A stretch of 64,000 nt of DNA from Chitinophaga sp. (GTDB taxonomy: Bacteria; Bacteroidota; Bacteroidia; Chitinophagales; Chitinophagaceae): positions 1,353,449-1,417,448 of the forward strand of contig NZ_JAGHZS010000001.1 of the NCBI RefSeq assembly GCF_017745275.1, read 5' to 3'. Shown one piece after another: positions 28,609-41,598 of the stretch. The position numbers were made by a program, and so were the translations under genes. Under the pieces are notes generated by a model. That model worked only from the letters and a program-made list of their open reading frames with translations, did not search any database and was not told the origin of the DNA. Within the stretch, counting starts at the first letter, position 1; each line of letters opens with the position of its first letter.

Positions 28609-29640
28609 ATGCTGGAAGGAAAAGAACTGATCCTGGCTACCAAGCCATATGCGCGCGAAGACAGGGCCAAAAGCTGGCGCTGCACCTTGTCAACATTATC
28701 ACTGTTGGTTTTATCACTAACCGGTACCCTGCTATTACCACACCTGGCATTACAACTGCTGGCCAGCATCCTGTCAGGATTGCTGATCGTCAGGATGTTT
28801 GTAATTTATCATGATCACCAGCACCACGCCATCCTGCATAATTCCAGGATAGCAGAAGCCATTATGCTCACTTTTGGCATCTACGTATTGGCACCTTCCA
28901 GTATCTGGAAACGTTCGCACGACTATCATCATAAACATAATTCCAAACTTTTCAGCGCCAGTATCGGATCTTATCCCATCATCACCCGCAAAAAATTTGA
29001 ATCCATTACACCAGCCGAAAGACGCACTTATTTGTTCAGCCGTCACCCATTGACTATTGCAGGAGGATACCTCTCCATGTTTATGCTCGGGATGTGTGTA
29101 CAATCATTTTTGAGCAGTCCGCGTAAACACCTGGATTCCTTATTAGCGCTTATCATCCACATTGGAGGCAGCGCTGCAGTGATATATTTCCTGGGATGGC
29201 AAAGCTGGATGCTTTTTATCCTTATTCCGTTTACCATTGCCTGCGGAATAGGCGCGTACCTCTTTTATGCGCAGCATAATTTTCCGGGTGTAACTTTCAA
29301 CGTTAACCAGGAATGGTGCTATGATAAGGCCGCATTACTATCTTCCAGCCACATGCTCATGAACCCGGTAATGACATGGTTTACCGGTAACATCGGCTAT
29401 CATCATATTCATCACCTTAATGCTCGTATTCCTTTCTATCGTTTGCCGGAAGTAATGAAGGCGATACCCGCCTTACAAAATGCCAAAACCACTACGCTGA
29501 GCCTGCGCGATATACGCGCCTGCTTCCTGTTGAAGGTTTGGGATCCGGAACAGGACAGGATGATCAGCCTGGCGGAAGTTCGCGCTATCAGGTCAGCTCA
29601 ATTGATGACGAAGCCCGATCCTGTAATAGTTGCCGGATAA
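28609..29640 (+). CDS. Membrane fatty acid desaturase
   Basis: It has three histidine boxes, HDHQHH, HDYHHKHN and HHIHHL, plus TM helices. Confidence 0.85.
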   Translation: MLEGKELILATKPYAREDRAKSWRCTLSTLSLLVLSLTGTLLLPHLALQLLASILSGLLIVRMFVIYHDHQHHAILHNSRIAEAIMLTFGIYVLAPSSIWKRSHDYHHKHNSKLFSASIGSYPIITRKKFESITPAERRTYLFSRHPLTIAGGYLSMFMLGMCVQSFLSSPRKHLDSLLALIIHIGGSAAVIYFLGWQSWMLFILIPFTIACGIGAYLFYAQHNFPGVTFNVNQEWCYDKAALLSSSHMLMNPVMTWFTGNIGYHHIHHLNARIPFYRLPEVMKAIPALQNAKTTTLSLRDIRACFLLKVWDPEQDRMISLAEVRAIRSAQLMTKPDPVIVAG

Positions 29641-30292
29641 TTCGTTTTCTCGTTTCCAGTGTCAGCTGGGTAATTTCTTTTGCTTTTTGCAGTACGGGCA
29701 ATCCGGCTGTATTGGGAGAACCCGCTCTGAATGGAGGTTCGGGATTATATTCCAGTTGCAGTTGCACTACTTTTGCCAGCTCCTCACCTCCTATGATGGC
29801 GGTAAGCTGCAGCCCGAAATCAATACCGGCGGTTACCCCGCCGCCGGTGATGCGATTCCTGTCGCGCACCACCCGTTCTTCGATCGTTTCCACACCAAAC
29901 ATCCGCAGTAGCTCCAGCGAACGCCAGTGTGTGGTTGCCTTATAGCCATCCAGTAATCCGGCAGCCGCCAGCACCAGCGCACCGGTACATACGGAAGTGA
30001 TATACTTTGCCTTCACCGCCTGTTCACGCAGAAATTGCAGCACCGGCTGATCTGTCAGCAACGCATTAATTCCCCTCCCACCGGGTACAAAAATGATATC
30101 CAGCTGTGGACAATCCGCCATCGCAATATCCGGTTGCAGGGTTAACCCTCCTTCCGCACGAATGGGCGCCCTGGTAGCGCCGATAATCAATACTTCAAAA
30201 CAGGGCGCTTTGATAAATACATCATAGGGGCCTGTAAAATCGAGGATTGTTAACTCAGGGAATAGTAACATCCCTACTTTTAATTTTTGCAT
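29588..30292 (-). CDS. DJ-1/PfpI family protein (isocyanide-hydratase-like)
   Basis: 234 aa with the nucleophile-elbow motif ITSVCTGALVLAAAG and the GGGVTAGIDFGL motif. Confidence 0.85.
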   Translation of the reverse strand: MQKLKVGMLLFPELTILDFTGPYDVFIKAPCFEVLIIGATRAPIRAEGGLTLQPDIAMADCPQLDIIFVPGGRGINALLTDQPVLQFLREQAVKAKYITSVCTGALVLAAAGLLDGYKATTHWRSLELLRMFGVETIEERVVRDRNRITGGGVTAGIDFGLQLTAIIGGEELAKVVQLQLEYNPEPPFRAGSPNTAGLPVLQKAKEITQLTLETRKRIIRQLLQDRASSSIELT

Positions 30293-30447
30293 ACATGGAG
30301 CTTTAAATGCCCTACAATAATAATGCAGCGGGCTGTAAACAGAGAGCAGAACAATTATTATTCCTGCAAGCGATAATGTCCTGAAAGGTTTCTATAATGG
30401 CCGAAATACAACTGGTACGGCTGCGAAGTGTTGCCCGGGCAGCTACA

Positions 30448-31344
30448 CTAACGGTGCTGGTCATACGTATTCGCAGGTACGGCTTGCTGCAATGCCGCTA
30501 TTTCTTCCGGCAGCAGTGCAGGCGCCTGCACTGCACGCAGTGCATCTTCCAGTTGCGCTACGGTGCGTATCCCTACTACAGCGCTGCTGACAACTGGTTG
30601 CTGTAATACGAAGCGCAGGGCCGTTTGCGCCGTATCACGGGCGGTATTACTGTGTGCCCTGATGGCAGCAGCAGCGGCGGCTACGTCCTCCGTTGTATAG
30701 TTGAGATAAGGTGCTGCAGGTTTATTTACCAGCAACCCTTTGGCTACGCTTCCTCTTGCCAGTACGCCGATATGGTTGTCCTGCAGCAACGGGAAACAGG
30801 TTTCTTCCGGGCGGCGATCCAGCAAGCTGTATTGCATCATCACACTAACGATGTGTGAGCGTTTCACGTATTCCCGGATGACATTCGGCCGGATAGAAGA
30901 GATCCCATAATGCCTGATTTTGCCCTGTTGTTTTAACAGTTCAAAAGCTGCAATACTGTCGTCTATCGGATCTTCCAGGGTACCGCCATGCAACTGGTAC
31001 AAATCGATGTAATCAGTTTGCAGTCGCTTCAGGCTGCCTTCAACGGTGGCTAAAATATACTCTTTCCGTGGGTTCCAGCTCCAACTGCTTCCATCTTCAT
31101 TCCATTGATTTCCTACTTTGGAGGCAATGATCACGTCGGCTCTTTTCTGCCGTAATGCTTTGCCTACGGTAATTTCGTTTTGTCCGTGCTCGTACAGGTC
31201 GGCGGTATCAAAGAAGTTAATACCCTGATCCACAGCGTGATGGAGCAGGCGTGTGGTGTCTGCATCGTCTTTACCGAGCGACATACAGCCAAATCCAATT
31301 TCACTGATGGCCAGGTCTGATTTTCCGAGGAAACGATATTGCAT
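30448..31344 (-). CDS. Aldo/keto reductase
   Basis: 298 aa with the GFGCMSLG, FDTADLYEHGQNE and YGISS motifs. Confidence 0.9.
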   Translation of the reverse strand: MQYRFLGKSDLAISEIGFGCMSLGKDDADTTRLLHHAVDQGINFFDTADLYEHGQNEITVGKALRQKRADVIIASKVGNQWNEDGSSWSWNPRKEYILATVEGSLKRLQTDYIDLYQLHGGTLEDPIDDSIAAFELLKQQGKIRHYGISSIRPNVIREYVKRSHIVSVMMQYSLLDRRPEETCFPLLQDNHIGVLARGSVAKGLLVNKPAAPYLNYTTEDVAAAAAAIRAHSNTARDTAQTALRFVLQQPVVSSAVVGIRTVAQLEDALRAVQAPALLPEEIAALQQAVPANTYDQHR

Positions 31345-31452
31345 GATAACCGGGTTTTACAATGTTCATGATGAGCGCTTCCAGGGAAGGCCGTTTAAAC
31401 GAAGTTATAGCCAAATCTTCCATTTTTCATATAAATCCGGTATTAAAATAAA

Positions 31453-32177
31453 GGGGTTTGCTTTGATAAACAGCCCCTGTTGTAAATTTGCGTCCACCTC
31501 ATTGAGTCACGTTGTACTAACCGCTACTATTGGCAGCAATTACCATGTCTGTGAAATAATAGGGCCGCCTGGAAAAACAGCCCCTTTTTTTAGTATGTCC
31601 GATCCATTGTATATTCATCACTCCTGACCTGGTAAGGTGTATAAAGGAACCACCTGGAAAGATGGCCCCTTACCTTCCCAAATCTAAATACCCGTTGTAA
31701 AGAACACGTTATATATAGAAGACCGTTTTAGCGGCCTGTTTTTTAAATAAAGGGACCGCCTGGATAAACAGTCCCTGGATTCCGAATCAATCGCAGCATA
31801 AATGACCTTGCATTATTTACACTGTGAGGGTTTTAACATATGGCGTTTACTACATTTTTATAGGTACAATAAGCCGATAGGTATCCGCCTATTGATAAGT
31901 TTCATATGGGGACCGCTTAGACAAACGGTCCTGTGCTTAAAGCTTCCATCGTGTATGTTGCACTCCAATTCCCTTGTAAATCCCTTCATTTGTCGCTGTC
32001 ATCTGCGCTTTTCGCGCTTATCATCATTCGCTGTCATCATTCATTTCCGGCTTATGCTCACTACAAACAGGGGGGACTACCTGAATAAGTGGTCCCGTTG
32101 TACTTGTTGCAAAGACGATAACTATGATCATCCTTTTTATCAGGAAAAAACGGACTGTCTGGATAAACAGTCCCCCG
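31453..32177 (+). repeat. Cluster of 7 same-orientation copies of a ~25-nt hairpin motif (consensus GGGAC-CGCCTGGATAAACA-GTCCC) in ORF-free DNA
   Basis: Copies lie at 31453-31477, 31562-31584, 31646-31669, 31752-31775, 31908-31931, 32071-32096 and 32151-32177. A possible inverted copy is at 31721-31738. Stems differ between copies but stay complementary. Confidence 0.8.
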
Positions 32178-32951
32178 TTTAAACTATCACCCTTTGTGAT
32201 GAGCTGTTATGGTTAACTAAGCAGGTAACAAACAATGATAAAATTGCTGACTGAATAGATGATATATCACTCCCACCCCGGCAGATTGCCGAAAAATTCC
32301 GTTGATGCCGCACACGACTGCGTAGTTATTTTTTATGAGAGGTAATGATTTTTCTATTCCAGGCAAAGTACCGGTACCCCGGATGGTGTCCGGATTTTAA
32401 AGCAGATACAGAGCAGGCTTTTACCACTACATTCACTACCACCAGTACATTCAATACCTTGTTTAATTCAATACAAAAAGGAATAGATGATAATGATAAT
32501 TACCAAGAAAAGTACAGGTCTGATATTTCCTGTTGAACAAAAAAGATTGCATATGAGTTAGGTTTCAATTTTAGTTTTATCTACAATGAAGGGTTAAGCA
32601 TTTCATTGTATGATATGGTTAATCTTAGGTTTTTCCAGTTGGGTTAACTGTTACTTAAAGGTTTATCAATCTGGCGCAGACAAACTAAAAAAAAGCATTC
32701 AGGGTATAATCTCTCAACGATATCGATCGTTACAATGCAAAGGTATGGCACTACACCATACAAAAAACACCTTTTACCCCCATTTTCCGAATGAATGAGA
32801 ATGAACAGACTAGAAAATTATTGAATAAAAAGAAACGCCTGTAAGTCAAAAAATTAACGTATAAAAATTGGTGAATTGATCAGAATTGATAAATGAGGTG
32901 TATATTCAATTAGCATATTTCATACATACTTTAACGTTAGTACCGTCATCC

Positions 32952-33905
32952 ATGCAAGCACAAATAACAGGGGCCTTTTATGGTATAGCTATTGGCGATG
33001 CCCTGGGCGTACCAGTGGAATTCAAAACGCGTAGCTATCTCTCCCAAAATCCTATCCTCACTCTTACCGGCTATGGTTGCTGGAATCAGCCACCGGGCAC
33101 CTTTTCAGACGACTCTTCCTTGACGTTTTGCACAGCGGAAAGCCTGCTCACCGGATACGATATTTCCCATATGGCACAAACCTTTGTCCGCTGGGCGCAA
33201 CAGGGCTATTGGGGTGCACACAATGAAGTGTTCGACATCGGGCATACTACCCGCCGGGCATTGCAAAGAGTAGCCACCGGGACCTCTCCGCGGGTGAGCG
33301 GTGGGTTTGAAGAATTTGAAAACGGCAACGGCTCCCTGATGCGCATGATACCCATCGCTTTTTTCCTGCTGAAAGAAGCGGATATCCATTTGCGTTACCA
33401 GGTGATTAAAGAAGTATCTGGTATCACGCATCAACATTTCCGCTCCGTACTAGGTTGCTTTATTTATGTGGAATTTGTTCGTACACTGCTGCTGGGTGGA
33501 GATATGCAGGAAGCCTACCTGCAGATGCAACGATCCGTAAATGCCTATGTAGCCCAACAATCCTTTAGTACTGCTGAACTAAAACATTACGAGCGAATTT
33601 TACAACAGCAGATCGCCGGCTTTTCTGAACAACAGATAAATAGCTCCGGTTATGTAGTGCATACGCTGGAAAGCGCGCTCTGGTGCCTGCTGAACACCAG
33701 CGATTATACCTCCTGCGTATTGCGCGCAGTGAACCTGGGCGGCGATACGGATACTACCGCAGCCGTAGCTGGCGCTGTGGCCGGATTACATTACGGAATA
33801 AATAATATTTCCCCGGAATGGATTAACCAGGTGGCAAAAAGTGCAGAAATCGAACAATTAGCCAGCCGTTTCGCAGTCGTCATTAATACCACCAGTCCCC
33901 TGTAA
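32952..33905 (+). CDS. ADP-ribosylglycohydrolase family protein
   Basis: N-terminal GAFYGIAIGDALGVPVEF and C-terminal NLGGDTDTTAAVAGAVAGLHYG are the two metal-binding signature regions. The start was moved to the ATG at 32952, since the track ORF starts with TTG at 32886. Confidence 0.85.
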   Translation: MQAQITGAFYGIAIGDALGVPVEFKTRSYLSQNPILTLTGYGCWNQPPGTFSDDSSLTFCTAESLLTGYDISHMAQTFVRWAQQGYWGAHNEVFDIGHTTRRALQRVATGTSPRVSGGFEEFENGNGSLMRMIPIAFFLLKEADIHLRYQVIKEVSGITHQHFRSVLGCFIYVEFVRTLLLGGDMQEAYLQMQRSVNAYVAQQSFSTAELKHYERILQQQIAGFSEQQINSSGYVVHTLESALWCLLNTSDYTSCVLRAVNLGGDTDTTAAVAGAVAGLHYGINNISPEWINQVAKSAEIEQLASRFAVVINTTSPL

Positions 33906-34884: not shown

Positions 34885-34909
34885 AACGATAGTTGTTATT
34901 CAGTTTAAC

Positions 34910-34939
34910 AAAAGAGCCGGTTTTTCAACCGGCTCTTTT
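34910..34939. terminator. Bidirectional rho-independent terminator between convergent genes
   Basis: The hairpin is AAAAGAGCCGGTT-TTTC-AACCGGCTCTTTT, with A/T tracts built into both arms. Confidence 0.8.
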
Positions 34940-34951
34940 CATTTATATCAG

Positions 34952-37255: not shown

Positions 37256-37432
37256 ATTCATTTCTTTCATGCGGGCTGCGGCTAAAAAATACTATATTTC
37301 CATGTCCTTACGTTTTACTAATTACTGTCCTAACCGGGCAGTATAGTAAAGGTGTTGATAAGATTACATAAATTAGTGATCTCAAACCCTTTAACGTTGT
37401 TATTAGTTTTAAAGATGATCAATACAGCTCTC

Positions 37433-38545
37433 ATGAAAAGGTTTTCCATACTGGTTGCCCTCTTCGTTCCGGTATTGCTGAACGCGCAGGCGAAACTCAG
37501 CCAAACCGTGATAGACGACTTCTCCAACCGGGTAGCCGCCCACTACCAATTACCCCATGATTCCATTACCGGCTACATTGCAGAACAGCTCACCCGCAGC
37601 GGTAATGCCGGTCTGGATATAGATTCTACTGTTTTTGATCTGAAAAAAGATCCTACGGCTTTTGATGCAGCCCTGAAATACCTGTACCAGTACAGCGACT
37701 GTAACCGCCAGCGGTTTATTGCCAACCTGCGTAGTATGGAGCTGCAAACCAACAGCGTGTTTCCCATCGCCACCTATACTGCCAATAAATTTAAGGGAGA
37801 TGTAAAGGCCCTGATGGACGATAAAAAAGATTTTCTGACCACCTATACCGGCCCTGTTACCGGCAAAAAGCCACCTGCCACCATTGCAGAAGTAGCTGCT
37901 GCCAACCAGGCCGCAACCAGTGCACCGGCACATACCAGTGTGGATAACACCAGCGAATCCGCCGCCAGCAATAGTGTTGCCGAAGCAGGTAATACTACCG
38001 CCACTGCCGCAGCAGCACCGGCCGCAGATACCCGCAACTGGGAAGTACGTCCCCTGTTCCAGGTACGTAAACCAGAACAATTGCTGGAAATGTATGGCGC
38101 CAACAACGTTACCCAACACGACGCTATTAACCTGGCAGGCGACAAAGACGGAGAAGCTTACCTGATCTATCCTGATACAGACAATGAGCTGGAAGTACAG
38201 TTTGACGGCGATAATGGAAATATCCTGACCTTTTCCCATTATCCTTCCAAATGGAAATCACCATATGGCATCAAAGCCGGCGATCCCCTGGATAAACTCA
38301 TCAAAGTAAATGGCCGTCCTTTTAAAATAAATGCTTTTGAATGGACCAACGGCGGCATGGTTTCCAGTTGGAACGGTGGCGCGCTGGAAGGCAAAGGCGT
38401 TGTTATTGTGCTGAAAGCCAACAATACTGGCGATCCCAAACAATACGACCAGGTAACCGGCGATAAAACTATCCGCTCGGACATGCCTGCCTTAAAGAAA
38501 CTGGACGTAATTATTGAATCTGTAGCATTTAAAGCCGCTAACTAG
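37433..38545 (+). CDS. Hypothetical secreted protein with an Ala/Thr/Ser-rich linker
   Basis: It has the signal peptide MKRFSILVALFVPVLLNAQA. The ATG at 37415 is an alternative start, and the track ORF begins with GTG at 37352. Confidence 0.55.
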   Translation: MKRFSILVALFVPVLLNAQAKLSQTVIDDFSNRVAAHYQLPHDSITGYIAEQLTRSGNAGLDIDSTVFDLKKDPTAFDAALKYLYQYSDCNRQRFIANLRSMELQTNSVFPIATYTANKFKGDVKALMDDKKDFLTTYTGPVTGKKPPATIAEVAAANQAATSAPAHTSVDNTSESAASNSVAEAGNTTATAAAAPAADTRNWEVRPLFQVRKPEQLLEMYGANNVTQHDAINLAGDKDGEAYLIYPDTDNELEVQFDGDNGNILTFSHYPSKWKSPYGIKAGDPLDKLIKVNGRPFKINAFEWTNGGMVSSWNGGALEGKGVVIVLKANNTGDPKQYDQVTGDKTIRSDMPALKKLDVIIESVAFKAAN

Positions 38546-39047: not shown

Positions 39048-39782
39048 TTATTTCAAATCCTTTTCCAGGGCGGCGGCTTTGGCCGCTGCCGCTGCATCAG
39101 CCGGAATTAATTTCAGCCATACCCGCGCTTCCTTCCTGTTTTGCTGCTGTGCGTAGTATAACGCTATATAAAATGCGGCATCATATTTAAAAATCGATTC
39201 TCCTTCAAATACTTTCTTCAGATCTTCCAGGCCACTGGCAGTTTGACCGGTATGCGTGGCGGCTATCCCCCGGTAGTAAAGTGCCATCTGGCTGCTGCTG
39301 TCGGTTTTGAGATAAGTATCCAGCAACGGGATCACTTTCGTATAGTCCTTCTCGTTAAAATACAGGGCGGCAGACTGTAACAGGCTGTCTGCATTATTTC
39401 CCCGTTCTACGGCTACCTGCATTTCAATATTACCGTAGGTTTCCATGTAGTTGGTATCCCTGGTATAAAAGCGGAATAGCAATACACCCGCCAGTATGGC
39501 TGCAACTGCACCAACAGCCGTCAGGTATTTCTTTATCGACACCACTTTGCCGGTACGGCCAAAATGCCCGGGGCGTTGCTCCTGCAAGGTTTGCTTCAGT
39601 GCATCCAGCTGTGGGTCAGGCTGCAGCCGCGCAGACAAGGTAGTTTTTACCTCCCGGTACTGTGCCAATGCTGCTGCCAGCGTAGCATCCTGCTGTAATG
39701 CCAGCTCAAACTGCTGCCGTTCTTCCGGCAGCATGTCTCCGTCTTCATAACGGATAATATCTTCATGATTATAAGCAGCCAT
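39048..39782 (-). CDS. Putative anti-sigma factor: cytoplasmic N-domain, one TM helix, periplasmic TPR-like domain
   Basis: Its ATG lies 3 nt after the stop of the ECF sigma gene. It has the TM helix AVGAVAAILAGVLLF and C-terminal TPR-like repeats (ALYYRGIA..., AAFYIALYYAQQQ). Confidence 0.6.
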   Translation of the reverse strand: MAAYNHEDIIRYEDGDMLPEERQQFELALQQDATLAAALAQYREVKTTLSARLQPDPQLDALKQTLQEQRPGHFGRTGKVVSIKKYLTAVGAVAAILAGVLLFRFYTRDTNYMETYGNIEMQVAVERGNNADSLLQSAALYFNEKDYTKVIPLLDTYLKTDSSSQMALYYRGIAATHTGQTASGLEDLKKVFEGESIFKYDAAFYIALYYAQQQNRKEARVWLKLIPADAAAAAKAAALEKDLK

Positions 39783-39785
39783 ACC

Positions 39786-40376
39786 TTAAATTTTCTGAGC
39801 CTGAATATATGATAACAGCGTAGCCATGCACTCGGATTTTTTTTTCCGGAGATAGCCATAAGTAACTCCCATTGCTGCTGCAATTTTTTCCTGGGCCTCA
39901 CCTGTGAGCGACAAGCGGAGTATTTCCCGGCACTTCTCCCCCAGTCTTTCGAACTGGGTCAATATCATGCCTGCCTGCGCTTCATTCTTTAACACCTGCT
40001 CTGCCGCAGCAAATACATCTTCTCCTACTTCATATACATCATCCAGCCGTTTTGTTACCGGTTGCCGGCCTCTTTTTTTTATTTCGTTGAGCCATTTCCG
40101 TTTACAGATCAATAAAAAGAAAGGTTCAAACGGGCAAGTCAGTTGCAGTTGCTTATACTTCGCCTGGTTATATACATCTATAATAGCTTCCTGGAAAATA
40201 TCTGCCGCATCATCTTCCGTACCCTGGTGCTGCAGAATATGGTGTTTGATTTTTCCGGCAAAGCGCTGGTAGATCTCCTGTACTAATAAGGTATCATTTC
40301 TTAAGAGGCCGTCGAGATATCGCTGATCGGGGTGAATACTCATCTGCGCTTGATTTGCATTGGTTGATAGGAACAT
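39786..40376 (-). CDS. RNA polymerase sigma-70 factor, ECF subfamily
   Basis: Region 2 reads DIFQEAIIDVY and the region 4 HTH reads QEKIAAAMGVTYGYLRKKKSECMATL. The ATG at 40343 is an alternative start. Confidence 0.85.
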   Translation of the reverse strand: MFLSTNANQAQMSIHPDQRYLDGLLRNDTLLVQEIYQRFAGKIKHHILQHQGTEDDAADIFQEAIIDVYNQAKYKQLQLTCPFEPFFLLICKRKWLNEIKKRGRQPVTKRLDDVYEVGEDVFAAAEQVLKNEAQAGMILTQFERLGEKCREILRLSLTGEAQEKIAAAMGVTYGYLRKKKSECMATLLSYIQAQKI

Positions 40377-40494
40377 CCCATGTCTAAAAATACATCTTTC
40401 TAAAAAAAAATTATCAAAAGGGGGGTAACAAAATAAAAGGGTGGTTGATCTACTATCAAACAGGCAAAAAATTATTCAACAAAAAAATATTTTT

Positions 40495-41598
40495 ATGAAA
40501 CCTATCTCTTTAAAAACAATTACCTGTCTGGCTGCAGCCACTATGATGTTTTCTTCCTGTAGAAAAAATGACAGCCATGAAGTAGCGCCTGATAAAGGCC
40601 TCGACGGAAAAATGCTGGCCGAACTATTCAGCAAAAACGCGCCGAAATTTGAGCACTTCACCATAGATGGTGCCGCTGGTGGTACCATTACCACCAGCAA
40701 AGGCACCAAATATAATATTCCTGCCAACGCTTTTATGACGGCCAATGGCGGACTGGTATATGGTCCCGTAGATATCAGTATCAAGGAGATGACCAATGTG
40801 AGCGAAATGATCCTGGCGGACAAACCTACGATGACATCGAATGGACAGTTGCTGGTATCTTTTGGAGAGTTCTTTGTAAAAGCGGCACAGAACAACCAGG
40901 ATCTTTCCCTGCGACCGAAGAATGACACCGGCAAGGGAATCCGCGTACAGGTACCTGCCAAACCCCGCGACAATGTGGCCAACGGCGTGAAAGAAGTGCC
41001 TATGTGGAGCGGCGACACCACTGTTACCTTTACACAACATGGCTTCAATTATATTAATCAGCCGGTTACTATCACGTCTCAACAAAGAGTACAACAGGGA
41101 GTGCTATGGAACCAGGTACAAAGCAGCTACGCGATATTCAACAGTACAAACGGTACCATGAACTTCCGCCTGGATAGCCTGATCCGCTGGATTAACTGCG
41201 ATGGACTCGCCAACATGCCGAATCCGAAAACCACCGTGATGGCTTATTTCACTAACAATTTCAACCCCGTAACTTCCTCCAGTTATGGAGGTGAACAACC
41301 CAGCATGTTGTTTTTCAAACCTAAAAACTTTAATACAATTGTGAAATTCTACAACGTGATCCTCAACGCACCAGCTGGTAAAGAAGGTTTCCATAGCTAT
41401 CAGACTTCTATCCCGGTAGGACTGGAAGGTACCTTCCTCGCCATCAGCGCTGTAGGCGGACAATTATATGCAGAGCAAAAAACAACGACCATCGGCACTC
41501 CCGCCGCAGGAGACAACTATACAACCGTAAGCTTTAACCTACAACCAGTAAGTGCTACAGATTTGCTTACACTGATTACAAGTATGAACGCCAAATAA
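40495..41598 (+). CDS. Hypothetical lipoprotein
   Basis: The start is at the ATG at 40495 (MKPISLKTITCLAAATMMFSSC, a lipobox). No recognisable domain. Confidence 0.6.
   Translation: MKPISLKTITCLAAATMMFSSCRKNDSHEVAPDKGLDGKMLAELFSKNAPKFEHFTIDGAAGGTITTSKGTKYNIPANAFMTANGGLVYGPVDISIKEMTNVSEMILADKPTMTSNGQLLVSFGEFFVKAAQNNQDLSLRPKNDTGKGIRVQVPAKPRDNVANGVKEVPMWSGDTTVTFTQHGFNYINQPVTITSQQRVQQGVLWNQVQSSYAIFNSTNGTMNFRLDSLIRWINCDGLANMPNPKTTVMAYFTNNFNPVTSSSYGGEQPSMLFFKPKNFNTIVKFYNVILNAPAGKEGFHSYQTSIPVGLEGTFLAISAVGGQLYAEQKTTTIGTPAAGDNYTTVSFNLQPVSATDLLTLITSMNAK

Follow-up and report, generated by a model that had tools for sequence, protein, structure and literature searches.

A conserved array of paralogous hairpin modules behind a small open reading frame in Chitinophaga: a candidate small-RNA precursor locus

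Introduction

The tandem small RNAs (sRNAs) Listeria LhrC1-4 and Pseudomonas PrrF1-PrrF2/PrrH are near-identical and redundant, and each of them has its own promoter. The Pseudomonas PrrF locus has been described (PMC7948967). In Rhodobacter sphaeroides, the ccaF1-CcsR1-4 array is co-transcribed with a small open reading frame (ORF), and RNase E releases the individual sRNAs by cuts next to U residues (PMC8034643). Tandem guide RNAs are also found in the dCas12f-sigmaE systems of Bacteroidetes, where they follow dcas12f immediately and have the guide at their 3' end (PMC13472631).

An earlier note, made from the sequence alone, had drawn attention to an array of repeated hairpins in an intergenic region of Chitinophaga. 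In the present study, this region was analysed together with its counterparts in related genomes. Its layout is like that of ccaF1-CcsR1-4 ('cuckoo' RNA, CIN1, Alphaproteobacteria; PMC8034643), since tandem paralogous hairpins come after a candidate small-protein gene and share its strand.

Materials and methods

All coordinates refer to the window, i.e. the whole 64-kb stretch of DNA that was analysed. The motif alignment A1 was composed of 106 distinct copies, out of 112 copies in all, from 17 arrays (the window and 16 Chitinophaga genomes). A covariance model of the hairpin (R1) was run on the 64-kb window and on about 100 kb of flanks in 13 relatives. Rfam 15 was searched with the whole window at the gathering threshold and with positions 31200-33000 at E<=10, and a strict-pattern scan was performed on 185,579 species genomes. 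As RNA evidence, assembled Logan contigs of related species were used, which are unstranded, have a depth of 2-10 and may include DNA carry-over.

Results

Repeat array and covariation

The hairpin motif of about 25 nt is present in seven copies of the same orientation between positions 31453 and 32177, and the 64-kb window holds no others. All copies reported in the earlier note were recovered on one strand at their positions. The degenerate pattern GGNNNNNYTKRAWAARYRGYCC with at most two mismatches gave eight matches in the window, none of which lies outside the seven copies; the plus strand accounts for seven, and the eighth is a minus-strand match of the near-palindromic copy 5. Shuffled sequence yielded 1.67 +/- 1.2 matches, and eight were reached in 0 of 100 shuffles. 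The spacing of the copies is irregular (78-164 nt), with seven hairpins within 730 nt.

Paired cells account for 93.6% of A1 (106 distinct copies). Double-sided changes were counted in 89 cells compared with 25 in shuffles, the observed value being reached in 0 of 500, and are carried by 5 of the 10 pairs. The stem covariation reported from the window is thus borne out by 17 arrays, and together with the conservation in Chitinophaga relatives it upholds the proposal of a selected RNA-level structure in tandem. U17, U19 and A22 of the hairpin are invariant, the loop UUCC is found in 64 of the 112 copies, and the consensus of the shared hairpin is GGGACUGUUUUUCCAGGCGGUCCC. A protein-coding reading of the hairpins (e.g. 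G-T-V-Y-P-G-G-P) was ruled out by indels in relatives that are not multiples of 3 and by conserved segments that are identical at all three codon positions.

The locus matches no described RNA family in Rfam. A match to such a family, for which the earlier note had pointed to this database, was not obtained at the gathering threshold with the whole window (0 matches), and between 31200 and 33000 only chance-level matches to eukaryotic snoRNAs and miRNAs were returned at E<=10 (E 1.4-8). Literature searches turned up no described Chitinophaga RNA motif of this kind.

Strand and structure of the hairpins

The pairing statistics assign the array hairpins to an RNA read from the minus strand of the window. 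At A1 pairs 15-24 and 16-23, all 106 distinct copies have UA, UG or CG with zero mismatches, and U-G is found in 42 and 66 of the 106 copies, respectively. Because these U-G pairs would become C-A mismatches on the plus strand, the plus-strand location favoured before had to be given up. Upon folding of the 112 copies, the minus strand gave the better structure in 86 cases and the plus strand in 26, with mean minimum free energies (MFE) of -14.0 and -11.3 kcal/mol, respectively. Minus-strand MFE values of the window copies lie between -10 and -20 kcal/mol (z between -1.1 and -3.4), and copy 6 (T6) is the sole window copy with a better fold on the plus strand.

The minus-strand structure consists of a 9-11-bp stem and a UUCC-type tetraloop (UUCC, AUCC or UUCU), followed by a moderately U-rich tail. 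What had been described as a conserved loop, CTGGAWAAACAG, corresponds on this strand to the upper stem plus the 4-nt loop. The exposed GGA loops of a CsrB/RsmZ-style design disappear likewise, as the minus-strand loop is UUCC and the complement of GGA in the hairpin is base-paired; GGA occurs on the minus-strand transcript only in some unpaired unit segments. The sequence AAATAAAGG does recur, not as a prefix of the hairpin, but as the reverse complement of the minus-strand U-rich tail behind it. The case shows that repeated hairpins should first be assigned to a strand by means of G-U statistics and only then be interpreted.

Modules of the array

Seven paralogous modules are present in the window (T7 to T1 in order of transcription, Table 1) and 6-11 in relatives. 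Each is composed of its own genus-conserved segment, in some cases with additional small helices, and, 3' of it, the shared G-U-rich hairpin. No difference in the T5 segment separates the window from its six closest relatives (L015, L043, L028, L037, L010, L048), and this segment is still recognisable in the L013 group, L008 and L033. The main group, the L013 group and L033 have nearly the same T2 segment. The T4 hairpin has an 11-bp stem that forms on the minus strand only, and the T4 segment partly pairs with the upstream sequence CAGUGUAAA. With its outer helix T3 folds at -19.8 kcal/mol, and its upper stem covaries (A-U, U-A, C-G vs G-C, U-G, U-G in other modules). The T6 unit is probably too short for a promoter of its own, since only about 55 nt lie between the hairpins. 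T1 is the final module before the reductase gene. Micro-ORFs in the unit segments (MDRTY*, MG*, MNI*) were judged coincidental and are not kept in T6 of the window. As a separate observation, the T2 segment is complementary to the U-run after the promoter box (inverted repeat I1), which is mostly A-run/U-run pairing.

Table 1. Coordinates of the features of the locus and its surroundings in the window, in order of minus-strand reading except for the last line.
Feature	Position	Strand	Sequence or composition	Evidence or remark
-7 promoter box (putative), Bacteroidota-type	32738..32745	-	TACCTTTG (TAnnTTTG)	
5' stem-loop	32716..32731	-	AACGAT-CGAT-ATCGTT	starts 7 nt after -7 box
Small ORF, 29 aa	32463..32552	-	MQSFLFNRKYQTCTFLGNYHYHLFLFVLN	unannotated; conserved
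Module T7	32140..32203	-	segment ATCACAAAGGGTGATAGTTT + hairpin GGGGGACUGUUUAUCCAGACAGUCC + U6 tail	R1 32140-32181 (-), 38.9 bits; fold -14.2 kcal/mol; terminator-like on minus; segment kept genus-wide
Module T6	32062..32124	-	segment TAGTTATCGTCTTTGCAAC + hairpin GGGACCACUUAUUCAGGUAGUCCC	R1 32.0 bits; orthologues in relatives
Module T5	31898..31969	-	segment ATTGGAGTGCAACATACACGATGGAAGCTTTA + hairpin GGACCGUUUGUCUAAGCGGUCC, without U-rich tail	R1 34.1 bits
Spacer hairpin T5/T4	31867..31894	-	CAAUAGGC...GCUUAUUG	
Module T4	31741..31805	-	segment TCATTTATGCTGCGATTGATTCGGAA + hairpin AGGGACUGUUUAUCCAGGCGGUCCCU + UUUAUUU tail	R1 49.0 bits
Spacer hairpin T4/T3	31720..31737	-	AGGCCG-CUAAAA-CGGUCU	
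Module T3	31635..31690	-	segment TATTTAGATTTGGGAAGGTAAG + hairpin GGGGCCAUCUUUCCAGGUGGUUCC, outer helix GGUAAGG/CCUUACC	R1 31.1 bits
Module T2	31550..31610	-	segment ACAATGGATCGGACATACTAAAAAAA + hairpin GGGGCUGUUUUUCCAGGCGGCCCU	R1 46.9 bits
Module T1	31443..31503	-	segment AATGAGGTGGACGCAAATTTACAAC + hairpin GGGGCUGUUUAUCAAAGCAAACCCC + UUUAUUUU tail	R1 34.5 bits
Aldo/keto reductase gene	30448..31344	-		directly downstream of array; Pfam PF00248, E 1.5e-58
DJ-1/PfpI gene	29588-30292	-		after reductase; PF01965
DUF6515 gene-end terminator	34906..34947	+	GAGCCGGUUUUUCAACCGGCUC + UUUUCAUUU	R1 26 bits, E 2.2e-6

Spacer helices and terminator likeness

Two of the spacers contain conserved helices. 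The T5/T4 hairpin retains 7 pairs in 12 species, with one G-U wobble at pair 19-46 and two at pair 21-44, double-sided changes at pair 23-42 (2 sequences) and a single A-A mismatch at pair 24-41. Among 8 species, compensatory changes in the T4/T3 hairpin give GGCCG/CGGUC, GACUG/CAGUC and GGCUG/CAGCC. It is this small hairpin (AGGCCG..CGGTCT, minus strand) that had been taken for a possible inverted copy of the motif at 31721-31738; it is a separate element and gives no R1 match.

The fraction of T after the stem is 0.55-0.62 at four positions starting two bases downstream and 0.44-0.51 at the next two (background 0.31), and the upstream flank of the hairpins is A-rich. Only 48 of 106 copies carry at least five T within the first 10 nt behind the stem; in the window, T7, T4 and T1 are good in this respect and T5 and T2 weak. 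Four window copies were flagged as terminator-like on the minus strand. Due to the fact that RNA contigs read through two to four of the hairpins, these do not appear to be efficient terminators. The only R1 match outside the array in the window is an ordinary terminator at the end of the DUF6515 gene that resembles the array hairpin, and the same site was matched in L015. No further array-type copies were detected by R1 in about 100 kb of flanks of the 13 relatives.

Upstream elements

Of the 13 intergenic regions extending as far as the putative -7 box, that of the window among them, 12 have it as TAYCTTTG in the corresponding place, L033 being the one exception. It is also present in 4/4 metagenome loci, and its distance to the first hairpin is 350-780 nt across the regions. 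The role of TAnnTTTG as a promoter element is presumed here from the published Bacteroidetes consensus. This minus-strand box is the only perfect one that is conserved in position, and because none is conserved in the internal units, a single upstream promoter is suggested. Promoters of individual units were considered and rejected, as a conserved TAnnTTTG was not found except near T3, the segment of which contains a near-consensus -7 box (perfect in the window, TAGATTTG, with near-matches in relatives) that may act as an internal promoter. A near-consensus -7 box, TAACTTCG, is also part of a conserved block between T1 and the reductase gene and is perfect (TACCTTTG) in L008. The arms of the 5' stem-loop are conserved between species, and its loop differs from one to the other in both length (4-6 nt) and sequence; the element would therefore fit an RNA hairpin better than a DNA operator of fixed spacing.

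The region had been regarded as ORF-free, but it contains a conserved 29-aa ORF on the minus strand (32552..32463), which was found in every clade whose locus extends to it. Among 14 orthologues, the variable sites are distributed over the codon positions as 11/6/23, and 35 alternative codons are synonymous and 21 non-synonymous. The ORF thus carries a coding signature and is a candidate protein gene. Its peptide is rich in F, Y, H and L and belongs to no family in Pfam and NCBIfam. A search in which the peptide was the sole query led to four metagenome loci, each with 7-11 hairpins 250-330 nt downstream; this gap between the ORF and the first hairpin corresponds to a variable stretch.

Distribution and synteny

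Among the 185,579 species genomes scanned, 17 Chitinophaga records match the strict pattern, with exactly one locus each, and all copies (112/112) are oriented in the sense of the reductase gene. The array unit is located between an ADP-ribosylglycohydrolase gene and the aldo/keto reductase gene. In a synteny comparison of the kind proposed earlier, the reductase gene adjoins the array in the same sense in 16/16 genome loci reaching that side (L036 ends short) and adjoins it in 4/4 metagenome loci, the reductases of relatives having 65-85% amino acid identity to that of the window. As 21/21 loci are orthologous, the linkage of ORF, array and reductase is inseparable from plain synteny. The nearest ECF sigma factor (39786-40376) is canonical, with 196 aa and an adjacent anti-sigma factor, and the unknown proteins neighbouring it have signal-peptide-like N-termini.

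Transcription

The array region is present in metatranscriptome assemblies. In the soil metatranscriptome X7, contigs cover the small ORF, and one contig of 419 nt extends over T4 to T1; in a related species from X7, a contig ends 14 nt after the T1 hairpin and the next one starts 25 nt on, in the reductase leader. Run X9 covers T4-T3 and has contig starts near the T4 segment, and the root RNA run X14 covers T7-T6, with an array depth equal to that of the flanking genes. In run X12 (library type unknown), one contig reaches from the ORF to just past T7. Across the RNA runs, further contigs read through T7, T6, T4, T3 and T2. A full-length contig of the array was not found in the RNA runs, in which coverage is patchy. 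The read-through contigs are equally compatible with a single long RNA and with a precursor that is processed. The window's own sequence was found only in DNA-type runs of one soil sample, the same and only sample that was returned by an exact look-up of the reductase protein, and no RNA run was matched with the L043 sequence as query.

Discussion

The model judged best, to which about an even chance of being correct is assigned, is a small-ORF and multi-module sRNA precursor locus within a non-coding unit of about 1.3 kb that is conserved across Chitinophaga. The unit would comprise, in this order, the promoter box (32745-32738), the 5' stem-loop, the 29-aa gene (32552-32463), the variable structured stretch and the modules. 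Transcription would start from the upstream promoter and include both the ORF and the modules, with the hairpins acting as leaky intrinsic terminators and/or as protective 3' ends. Partial read-through, combined with endonucleolytic cuts in the AU-rich stretches after the hairpins, would then give rise to a set of small RNAs that have the 3' hairpin in common but each a single-stranded 'business' segment of its own, and the shared hairpin sequence may be a handle for a common RNA-binding partner. That the locus is a dedicated ribonucleoprotein system, in which up to 11 sequence-specific, G-U-rich UUCC hairpins serve as the handle for an RNA-binding protein and the modules deliver different conserved guide/seed segments to their own targets, is considered unlikely; the binding protein would in that case possibly be the 29-aa peptide, by analogy with the DUF1127 protein CcaF1, which binds and matures the CcsR RNAs.

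The earlier note had considered both tandem sRNAs ending in the hairpin and one long multi-hairpin RNA, and both ideas survive, although moved to the minus strand. As an uncut structured non-coding RNA, the array would work as a whole, in the manner of a multivalent scaffold or sponge showing 6-11 hairpins to an RNA-binding protein, a possibility that we regard as unlikely. The conservation of the hairpin sequence itself, besides its pairing, between modules and genus-wide would be explained by it and is unneeded for a terminator; the one conserved promoter box, the structured spacers and the RNA contigs spanning several hairpins are equally compatible. However, a different and strongly conserved segment in each module would be superfluous for a pure decoy, most hairpins have U-rich tails, a candidate binding protein was not found, and the RNA runs offer patchy coverage and no full-length contig. 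The adjoining same-sense reductase gene in all 16 genome loci reaching that side and in all four metagenome loci, the conserved short ORF ahead of the array with its many F, Y, H and L residues and the terminator-like hairpins would also suit a long leader that regulates the aldo/keto reductase - DJ-1/PfpI operon. Its serial attenuators, controlled perhaps via translation of the 29-aa ORF or via an antitermination factor, would determine if the polymerase gets as far as the reductase gene. This arrangement is held to be improbable: antiterminator pairing for the 5' arms was not evident in the conserved segments inspected, the peptide is conserved residue by residue and not as codon runs and is encoded 250-330 nt from the first hairpin, the -7-like block (TAACTTCG) lies between T1 and the reductase gene, and the X7 contigs break there for 25 nt.

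Seven independent sRNA genes, each with its own promoter and terminator, are a still less probable arrangement. The module architecture of unique segment, hairpin and U-tail, the perfect TAGATTTG box in the T3 segment of the window with its near-matches in relatives, and the X9 contig starts near the T4 segment are in line with it, but 6/7 modules have no conserved TAnnTTTG box ahead, neither the T6 nor the T2 unit offers enough room for both a promoter and an RNA, and the spacers hold conserved RNA helices instead of promoter-like blocks. It is very unlikely that the array encodes guides for an RNA-guided protein, as in dCas12f-sigmaE, or is CRISPR-like, even though tandem units of 80-160 nt with a shared structured part and a unit-specific part of 20-30 nt are reminiscent of arrays recently described in the same phylum. 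A Cas12f, TnpB or IscB-like gene was not found near the array, the nearest ECF sigma factor is canonical with an anti-sigma factor and its unknown neighbours look secreted, the unique segment lies 5' of the shared hairpin and not at the 3' end as in dCas12f systems, and the 'spacers' are conserved between species and irregularly spaced, unlike a CRISPR period. Plus-strand hairpins with an exposed GGA loop, read as a CsrB/RsmZ-like decoy or as left-to-right sRNAs as in the earlier note, are almost certainly not the explanation. Stems of six bp do form on that strand, copy 6 folds better there and the putative loop contains GGA; nevertheless, C-A mismatches would arise in 42 and 66 of 106 copies at two positions that are never mismatched on the minus strand, 86/112 copies fold better on the latter, and the promoter box, the small ORF, the G-U pairs of the spacer and the U-tails are all found on it. 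To a similarly extreme degree we doubt a dispersed REP/BIME-like DNA repeat, which the earlier note had also put forward, or another DNA-level site (recombination, protein binding). The copies are clustered imperfect palindromes in an intergenic region, but each of the 17 Chitinophaga records has a single locus with syntenic copies in one orientation, extra copies are absent from the 64-kb window (bar one gene terminator) and from about 100 kb of relatives' flanks, and the strand-asymmetric G-U pattern would be meaningless for double-stranded DNA.

To our knowledge, RNA-based regulation has hardly been charted in Bacteroidota other than Bacteroides, and we know of no Hfq, ProQ and (usually) CsrA in this phylum. 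A genus-conserved structured locus with a candidate micro-protein is an entry point to this regulation, as it supplies defined probes for Northern and Term-seq analyses, a hairpin for pull-downs and, for tagging or deletion, an unannotated gene of 29 aa. Should the modules prove to be processed sRNAs, Bacteroidota would have in this locus a counterpart, as regards design, to the ccaF1-CcsR operon of Alphaproteobacteria. As a leader, the locus would be unusually elaborate for one ahead of carbonyl-detoxification-type genes (aldo/keto reductase, DJ-1/PfpI).

Among known elements, REP/BIME sequences share with the array the clustering of imperfect intergenic palindromes; the array differs from them in its single locus per genome, its one orientation, the positional orthology of each copy and the strand-specific G-U pairing. 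As in CsrB/RsmZ, many repeated stem-loops per transcript would form a multivalent-decoy design, but on the transcribed strand the loop contains no GGA and the repeats are spaced by 80-160 nt instead of 10-30. CsrA is, as far as we know, not generally expected in Bacteroidota. The G+C-rich stem, short loop and A-rich upstream flank are those of intrinsic terminators and of the terminator hairpins of trans-acting sRNAs, the tails are moderately U-rich, and a real gene-end terminator of the window scores with R1. Unlike intrinsic terminators, seven of the hairpins follow each other within 730 nt with no genes in between, upper stem and loop are conserved in sequence far past the needs of termination, several tails are weak and contigs read through.

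With LhrC and PrrF, the array has in common the head-to-tail arrangement of paralogous RNAs in one intergenic region, the terminator-like hairpins at their ends and possible read-through, whereas the variable parts of the array differ from each other, each being conserved on its own, and a good promoter box is present only once. The likeness to CcsR extends to a copy number that varies through local duplication; it is a likeness in design only, with no sequence or family relationship and in a different phylum, and for Chitinophaga co-transcription and processing are inferred. CcsR units have two hairpins with CCUCCUCCC anti-SD loops, whereas the Chitinophaga loops are UUCC-type tetraloops, and the Chitinophaga small protein, of 29 aa, is without the DUF1127 domain of CcaF1. 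While the CcsR RNAs share a seed, the Chitinophaga modules each differ in their single-stranded segment.

Structure and strand of the repeated hairpin

The seven hairpin copies described in the earlier note were found in the window sequence at the positions given there, all in a single orientation. A degenerate motif pattern derived from them (GGNNNNNYTKRAWAARYRGYCC, up to two mismatches allowed) matched eight times in the 64-kb window, always on the seven array copies, because the near-palindromic copy 5 is matched on the opposite strand as well. In shuffled sequence the count was 1.67 ± 1.2, and eight was not reached in any of 100 shuffles.

RNA folding favoured the minus strand for six of the seven copies; there, G-U pairs carry the stem through what had been taken for a loop, and the result is a 9-12-bp stem closed by a loop of four nucleotides (AUCC or UUCC). 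The same preference was seen when 17 arrays, namely those of the window and 16 Chitinophaga genome loci, were taken together: of their 112 copies, 106 of them distinct, 86 were more stable on the minus strand and 26 on the plus strand. Directly beneath the pair that closes the loop, the alignment of hairpin copies has two pairs (columns 15-24 and 16-23) that are UA, UG or CG everywhere without a mismatch; their 42 and 66 U-G pairs would be C-A mismatches on the plus strand. In total, 93.6% of the alignment cells are paired, double-sided changes occur in five of ten pairs, and 89 cells are compensatory as against 25 in shuffles (0/500 reaching 89). Sliding the partner columns by 1-3 positions lowers pairing to 29-56%. 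Fold preference, mismatch-free U-G pairs and covariation therefore establish the repeats as a real structure at the RNA level on the minus strand. The earlier note thus detected the locus and its stem covariation correctly, but read the wrong strand: the loop that it took to expose GGA belongs to the paired upper stem, and its prefix AAATAAAGG becomes a UUUAUUU tail in the minus-strand RNA. The hairpin is also conserved in sequence, with U17, U19 and A22 invariant and the loop UUCC in 64 of the 112 copies.

Features of the array and its surroundings in the window
Feature	Position	Strand	Remarks
Conserved TTCATTCnnGTTCATT repeats	~32790-32810		upstream of -7 box
-7 box TAYCTTTG (TACCTTTG)	32745-32738	minus	Bacteroidota-type; only perfect one conserved in position
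Stem-loop AACGAT-N4-6-ATCGTT	within 32716-32745	minus	directly after -7 box; loop length differs between species
Small ORF, MQSFLFNRKYQTCTFLGNYHYHLFLFVLN	32552-32463	minus	29 aa (29-30 aa overall); unannotated; conserved in all clades
18-nt tandem, ACCACTACATTCACTACC / ACCAGTACATTCAATACC	32418-32458		window-specific insertion
Hairpin array	31453-32177	minus	modules T7 to T1 in transcription order
T5 segment, AUUGGAGUGCAACAUACACGAUGGAAGCUUUA		minus	
T4 segment, AUUUAUGCUGCGAUUGAUUCGGAA		minus	
T2 segment, ACAAUGGAUCGGACAUACUAAAAAA		minus	
T1 segment, UUUUGAGGUGGACGUAAAUUGAUA		minus	
Spacer hairpin CAAUAUG...CAUAUUG		minus	T4 unit
Spacer helix CAGUGUAAA/UUUAUGCUG		minus	T4 unit
Spacer hairpin AGGCYG...CRGYCU		minus	after T4
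Outer helix		minus	around T3
Covarying hairpin inside GGUAA...UUACUG		minus	T1 unit
~80-nt insertion, direct repeat TCATTTGTCGCTGTCATC / TCATCATTCGCTGTCATC	31985-32060		T5 unit; window-specific
Inverted repeat	31585-31606, 32672-32693		22 nt, 82%
Aldo/keto reductase and DJ-1/PfpI protein	29588-31344	minus	downstream of array
DUF6515 gene terminator, GAGCCGGUUUUUCAACCGGCUC plus UUUUCAUUU	34906-34947	+	26 bits with hairpin model
ECF sigma (196 aa) and anti-sigma (244 aa)	39048-40376	minus	canonical
Two ~390-aa proteins	37352-38545, 40441-41598	+	flanking sigma pair; signal-peptide-like N-termini

Putative promoter region, small ORF and neighbouring genes

Between the -7 box and the first hairpin downstream of it there are 350-780 nt. 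Of the 13 intergenic regions long enough to include the position of the box, 12 have it there (all but L033), as do four of four loci from metagenome contigs. Among 14 orthologues of the small ORF, variable sites are distributed 11/6/23 over the codon positions and alternative codons are synonymous in 35 and non-synonymous in 21 cases; these substitution patterns therefore give it a clear coding signature. Its core TCTFLG.YH is invariant, and searches against Pfam and NCBIfam assigned it to no family. A stretch of ~250-330 nt that differs between species follows; the 18-nt tandem within it is absent from the window's closest relatives.

The best NCBIfam match of the reductase is a YdjG-type methylglyoxal reductase, well below the cut-off; its pairing with the DJ-1/PfpI protein would be in keeping with reactive-carbonyl detoxification. 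Between T1 and the start of the reductase, a conserved block contains a near-consensus -7 box (TAACTTCG), which is perfect in the relative L008. The two ~390-aa proteins had no match in Pfam or NCBIfam.

Modular organization of the array

In cross-species alignments, each hairpin is preceded on its 5′ side by a module-specific segment that is conserved in the main group and recognisable in deeper clades, and is followed by a short U-enriched tail. T frequency is 0.55-0.62 at four positions from two bases past the stem (background 0.31), with at least five T within 10 nt after the stem in only 48 of 106 copies. The spacers carry further hairpins on the same strand, their pairing kept through compensatory or G-U changes; the one after T4 accounts for the inverted copy of the earlier note.

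Regex searches gave six modules in two clades, seven in most genomes and eight in L034 and L009, while the covariance model of the shared hairpin added one copy in L008 and found 10-11 hairpins in the metagenome contig L047. Module number varies through local duplication: L034 and L009 have extra T2/T1-like units and L008 has two T7-like units. A T5-like segment stands before a T3-type hairpin in the fulva/eiseniae/varians clade (L023, L040, L044), which suggests module reshuffling. The short words ACAUAC/ACAUAG and AUGGA/GUGGA are common to different modules (T7 32181-32203, T5 31937-31969, T2 31585-31610, T1 31479-31520) in differing order, which suggests that the segments themselves are diverged paralogues. 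Six of the seven modules have GGA in their unpaired segment. The ~80-nt insertion in the T5 unit is absent from the closest relatives. In the 22-nt inverted repeat, the T2 segment GGAUCGGACAUACUAAAAAAA is complementary to a U-run region ~50 nt past the presumed transcription start, which could be long-range or intermolecular pairing or a coincidence of A-run and U-run; its UGUCYG/CGGACA part is complementary in the L013 group too.

Occurrence in the window and in other genomes

With the covariance model, the seven copies reached 31-49 bits (minus strand); the only further site in the 64 kb was an ordinary gene terminator, that of DUF6515. The DUF6515 terminator in L015 (4330-4371) was also positive (24-26 bits over both sites); the array hairpin may therefore stem from an ordinary local terminator type. 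About 100 kb of relatives' flanks gave the same picture. Nothing in the window passed the gathering scores of Rfam 15, and with E up to 10 the matches in 31200-33000 were only at chance level.

A strict motif form, scanned against one genome per species (185,579 species), yielded 42 loci. Seventeen were Chitinophaga records (C. niastensis, eiseniae, fulva, polysaccharea, hostae, terrae, ginsengisegetis, varians and unnamed strains or MAGs), each with one locus of 1-3 strict matches; the remaining 25 were isolated singles in unrelated phyla. With the degenerate motif, 4-8 copies in one orientation were found per Chitinophaga locus. Comparison of intergenic synteny confirmed conservation in relatives: the array lies directly upstream of the same-sense reductase in all 16 loci reaching that side (L036 ends short of it), and the reductase orthologues share 65-85% amino-acid identity with that of the window. 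On the other side there is usually an ADP-ribosylglycohydrolase or DUF6515 gene. Searching metagenome contigs with the small-ORF alignment alone yielded four loci, each of which has 7-11 model-positive hairpins on the strand of the ORF, the first of them 250-330 nt downstream; the conserved -7 box precedes the ORF, and the reductase follows the array. These loci are orthologous to the window and therefore document constancy of the arrangement, not an independent association.

Representation in RNA libraries

The window's own sequence was found in no RNA run, and three RNA runs contained matching contigs from related species. In the soil metatranscriptome X7, three contigs matched the C. ginsengisegetis locus L037: one from 15 nt before the small-ORF ATG to past a species-specific hairpin, one of 419 nt that begins in the T4 unit, crosses T3 and T2 and ends 14 nt beyond T1, and one that begins in the reductase leader after a gap of 25 nt. 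The soil run X9 gave a contig across T4-T3, and the root RNA run X14 a 331-nt contig across T7 and T6 of L034, with array depth equal to flanking-gene depth. The array region is thus present in RNA libraries, as assembled, unstranded contigs of depth 2-10 in which DNA carry-over is possible, and the contigs spanning several hairpins suggest that these are read through at least sometimes. Runs X12 and X13, of unspecified library type, contained contigs identical to C. ginsengisegetis (L037 5693-6092 and 5472-5650); one begins ~26 nt ahead of the small ORF and reaches 25 nt beyond T7, which would support co-transcription of ORF and first module if these runs are RNA.

Functional interpretation

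The repeats are very probably minus-strand RNA hairpins in a conserved, structured and probably transcribed locus. The function that we favour, and to which we give an even chance, is that of a precursor in which small ORF and module array give rise to a set of small RNAs. Transcription would proceed from the conserved promoter past the small ORF into the array, where the hairpins would serve both as leaky terminators and to cap 3′ ends. Incomplete termination, together with cleavage in the AU-rich stretches behind the hairpins, would release small RNAs with a common 3′ hairpin and differing conserved single-stranded segments. This model is favoured because of the single good promoter box, the short units and the sequence conservation of the shared hairpin, which exceeds terminator needs and suggests a common binding partner. 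Independent sRNA genes are improbable, since there is a single good promoter box and the shortest units (~55 nt between hairpins, T6) could hardly accommodate promoters of their own.

One long RNA serving as a multivalent scaffold or sponge seems rather unlikely, and a long attenuating leader of the reductase and DJ-1/PfpI genes, with the small ORF possibly as leader peptide, unlikely. Hardly any credence is left for the plus-strand GGA-loop version, given the strand evidence, or for a REP/BIME-type dispersed repeat, as proposed in the earlier note, because in the window and in about 100 kb of relatives' flanks the model detects only the DUF6515 terminator besides the array, and the strict motif gave one locus in each Chitinophaga record. 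Guide-RNA arrays of the dCas12f-sigmaE type were recently described in Bacteroidetes (PMC13472631), but around the present array there are only a canonical ECF sigma, its anti-sigma and secreted-looking proteins, and the unique segment and the shared hairpin stand in the wrong order, which makes this explanation equally remote. The precursor model concerns a sharply defined locus that is directly testable in cultured Chitinophaga strains.

Comparison with known systems

This structured-RNA locus is genuine, conserved and, apparently, undescribed. For REP/BIME, the CsrB/RsmZ type, cuckoo RNAs, CRISPR or dCas12f arrays and any Rfam family, at least one tested defining feature was absent. The array hairpins have the structure of intrinsic terminators, whereas the U-tract is only partly developed. 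The most fitting class for the locus is that of tandem hairpin-sRNA clusters with a linked small ORF. Closest in design is ccaF1-CcsR1-4 of Rhodobacter sphaeroides, in which a small-protein gene is followed by tandem paralogous hairpin sRNAs that are co-transcribed with it and matured by RNase E with the aid of the small protein (PMC8034643). The likeness is architectural only, as loop motif, DUF1127 domain, shared seed and phylum all differ, and co-transcription, established for ccaF1-CcsR1-4, is inferred for the Chitinophaga array.
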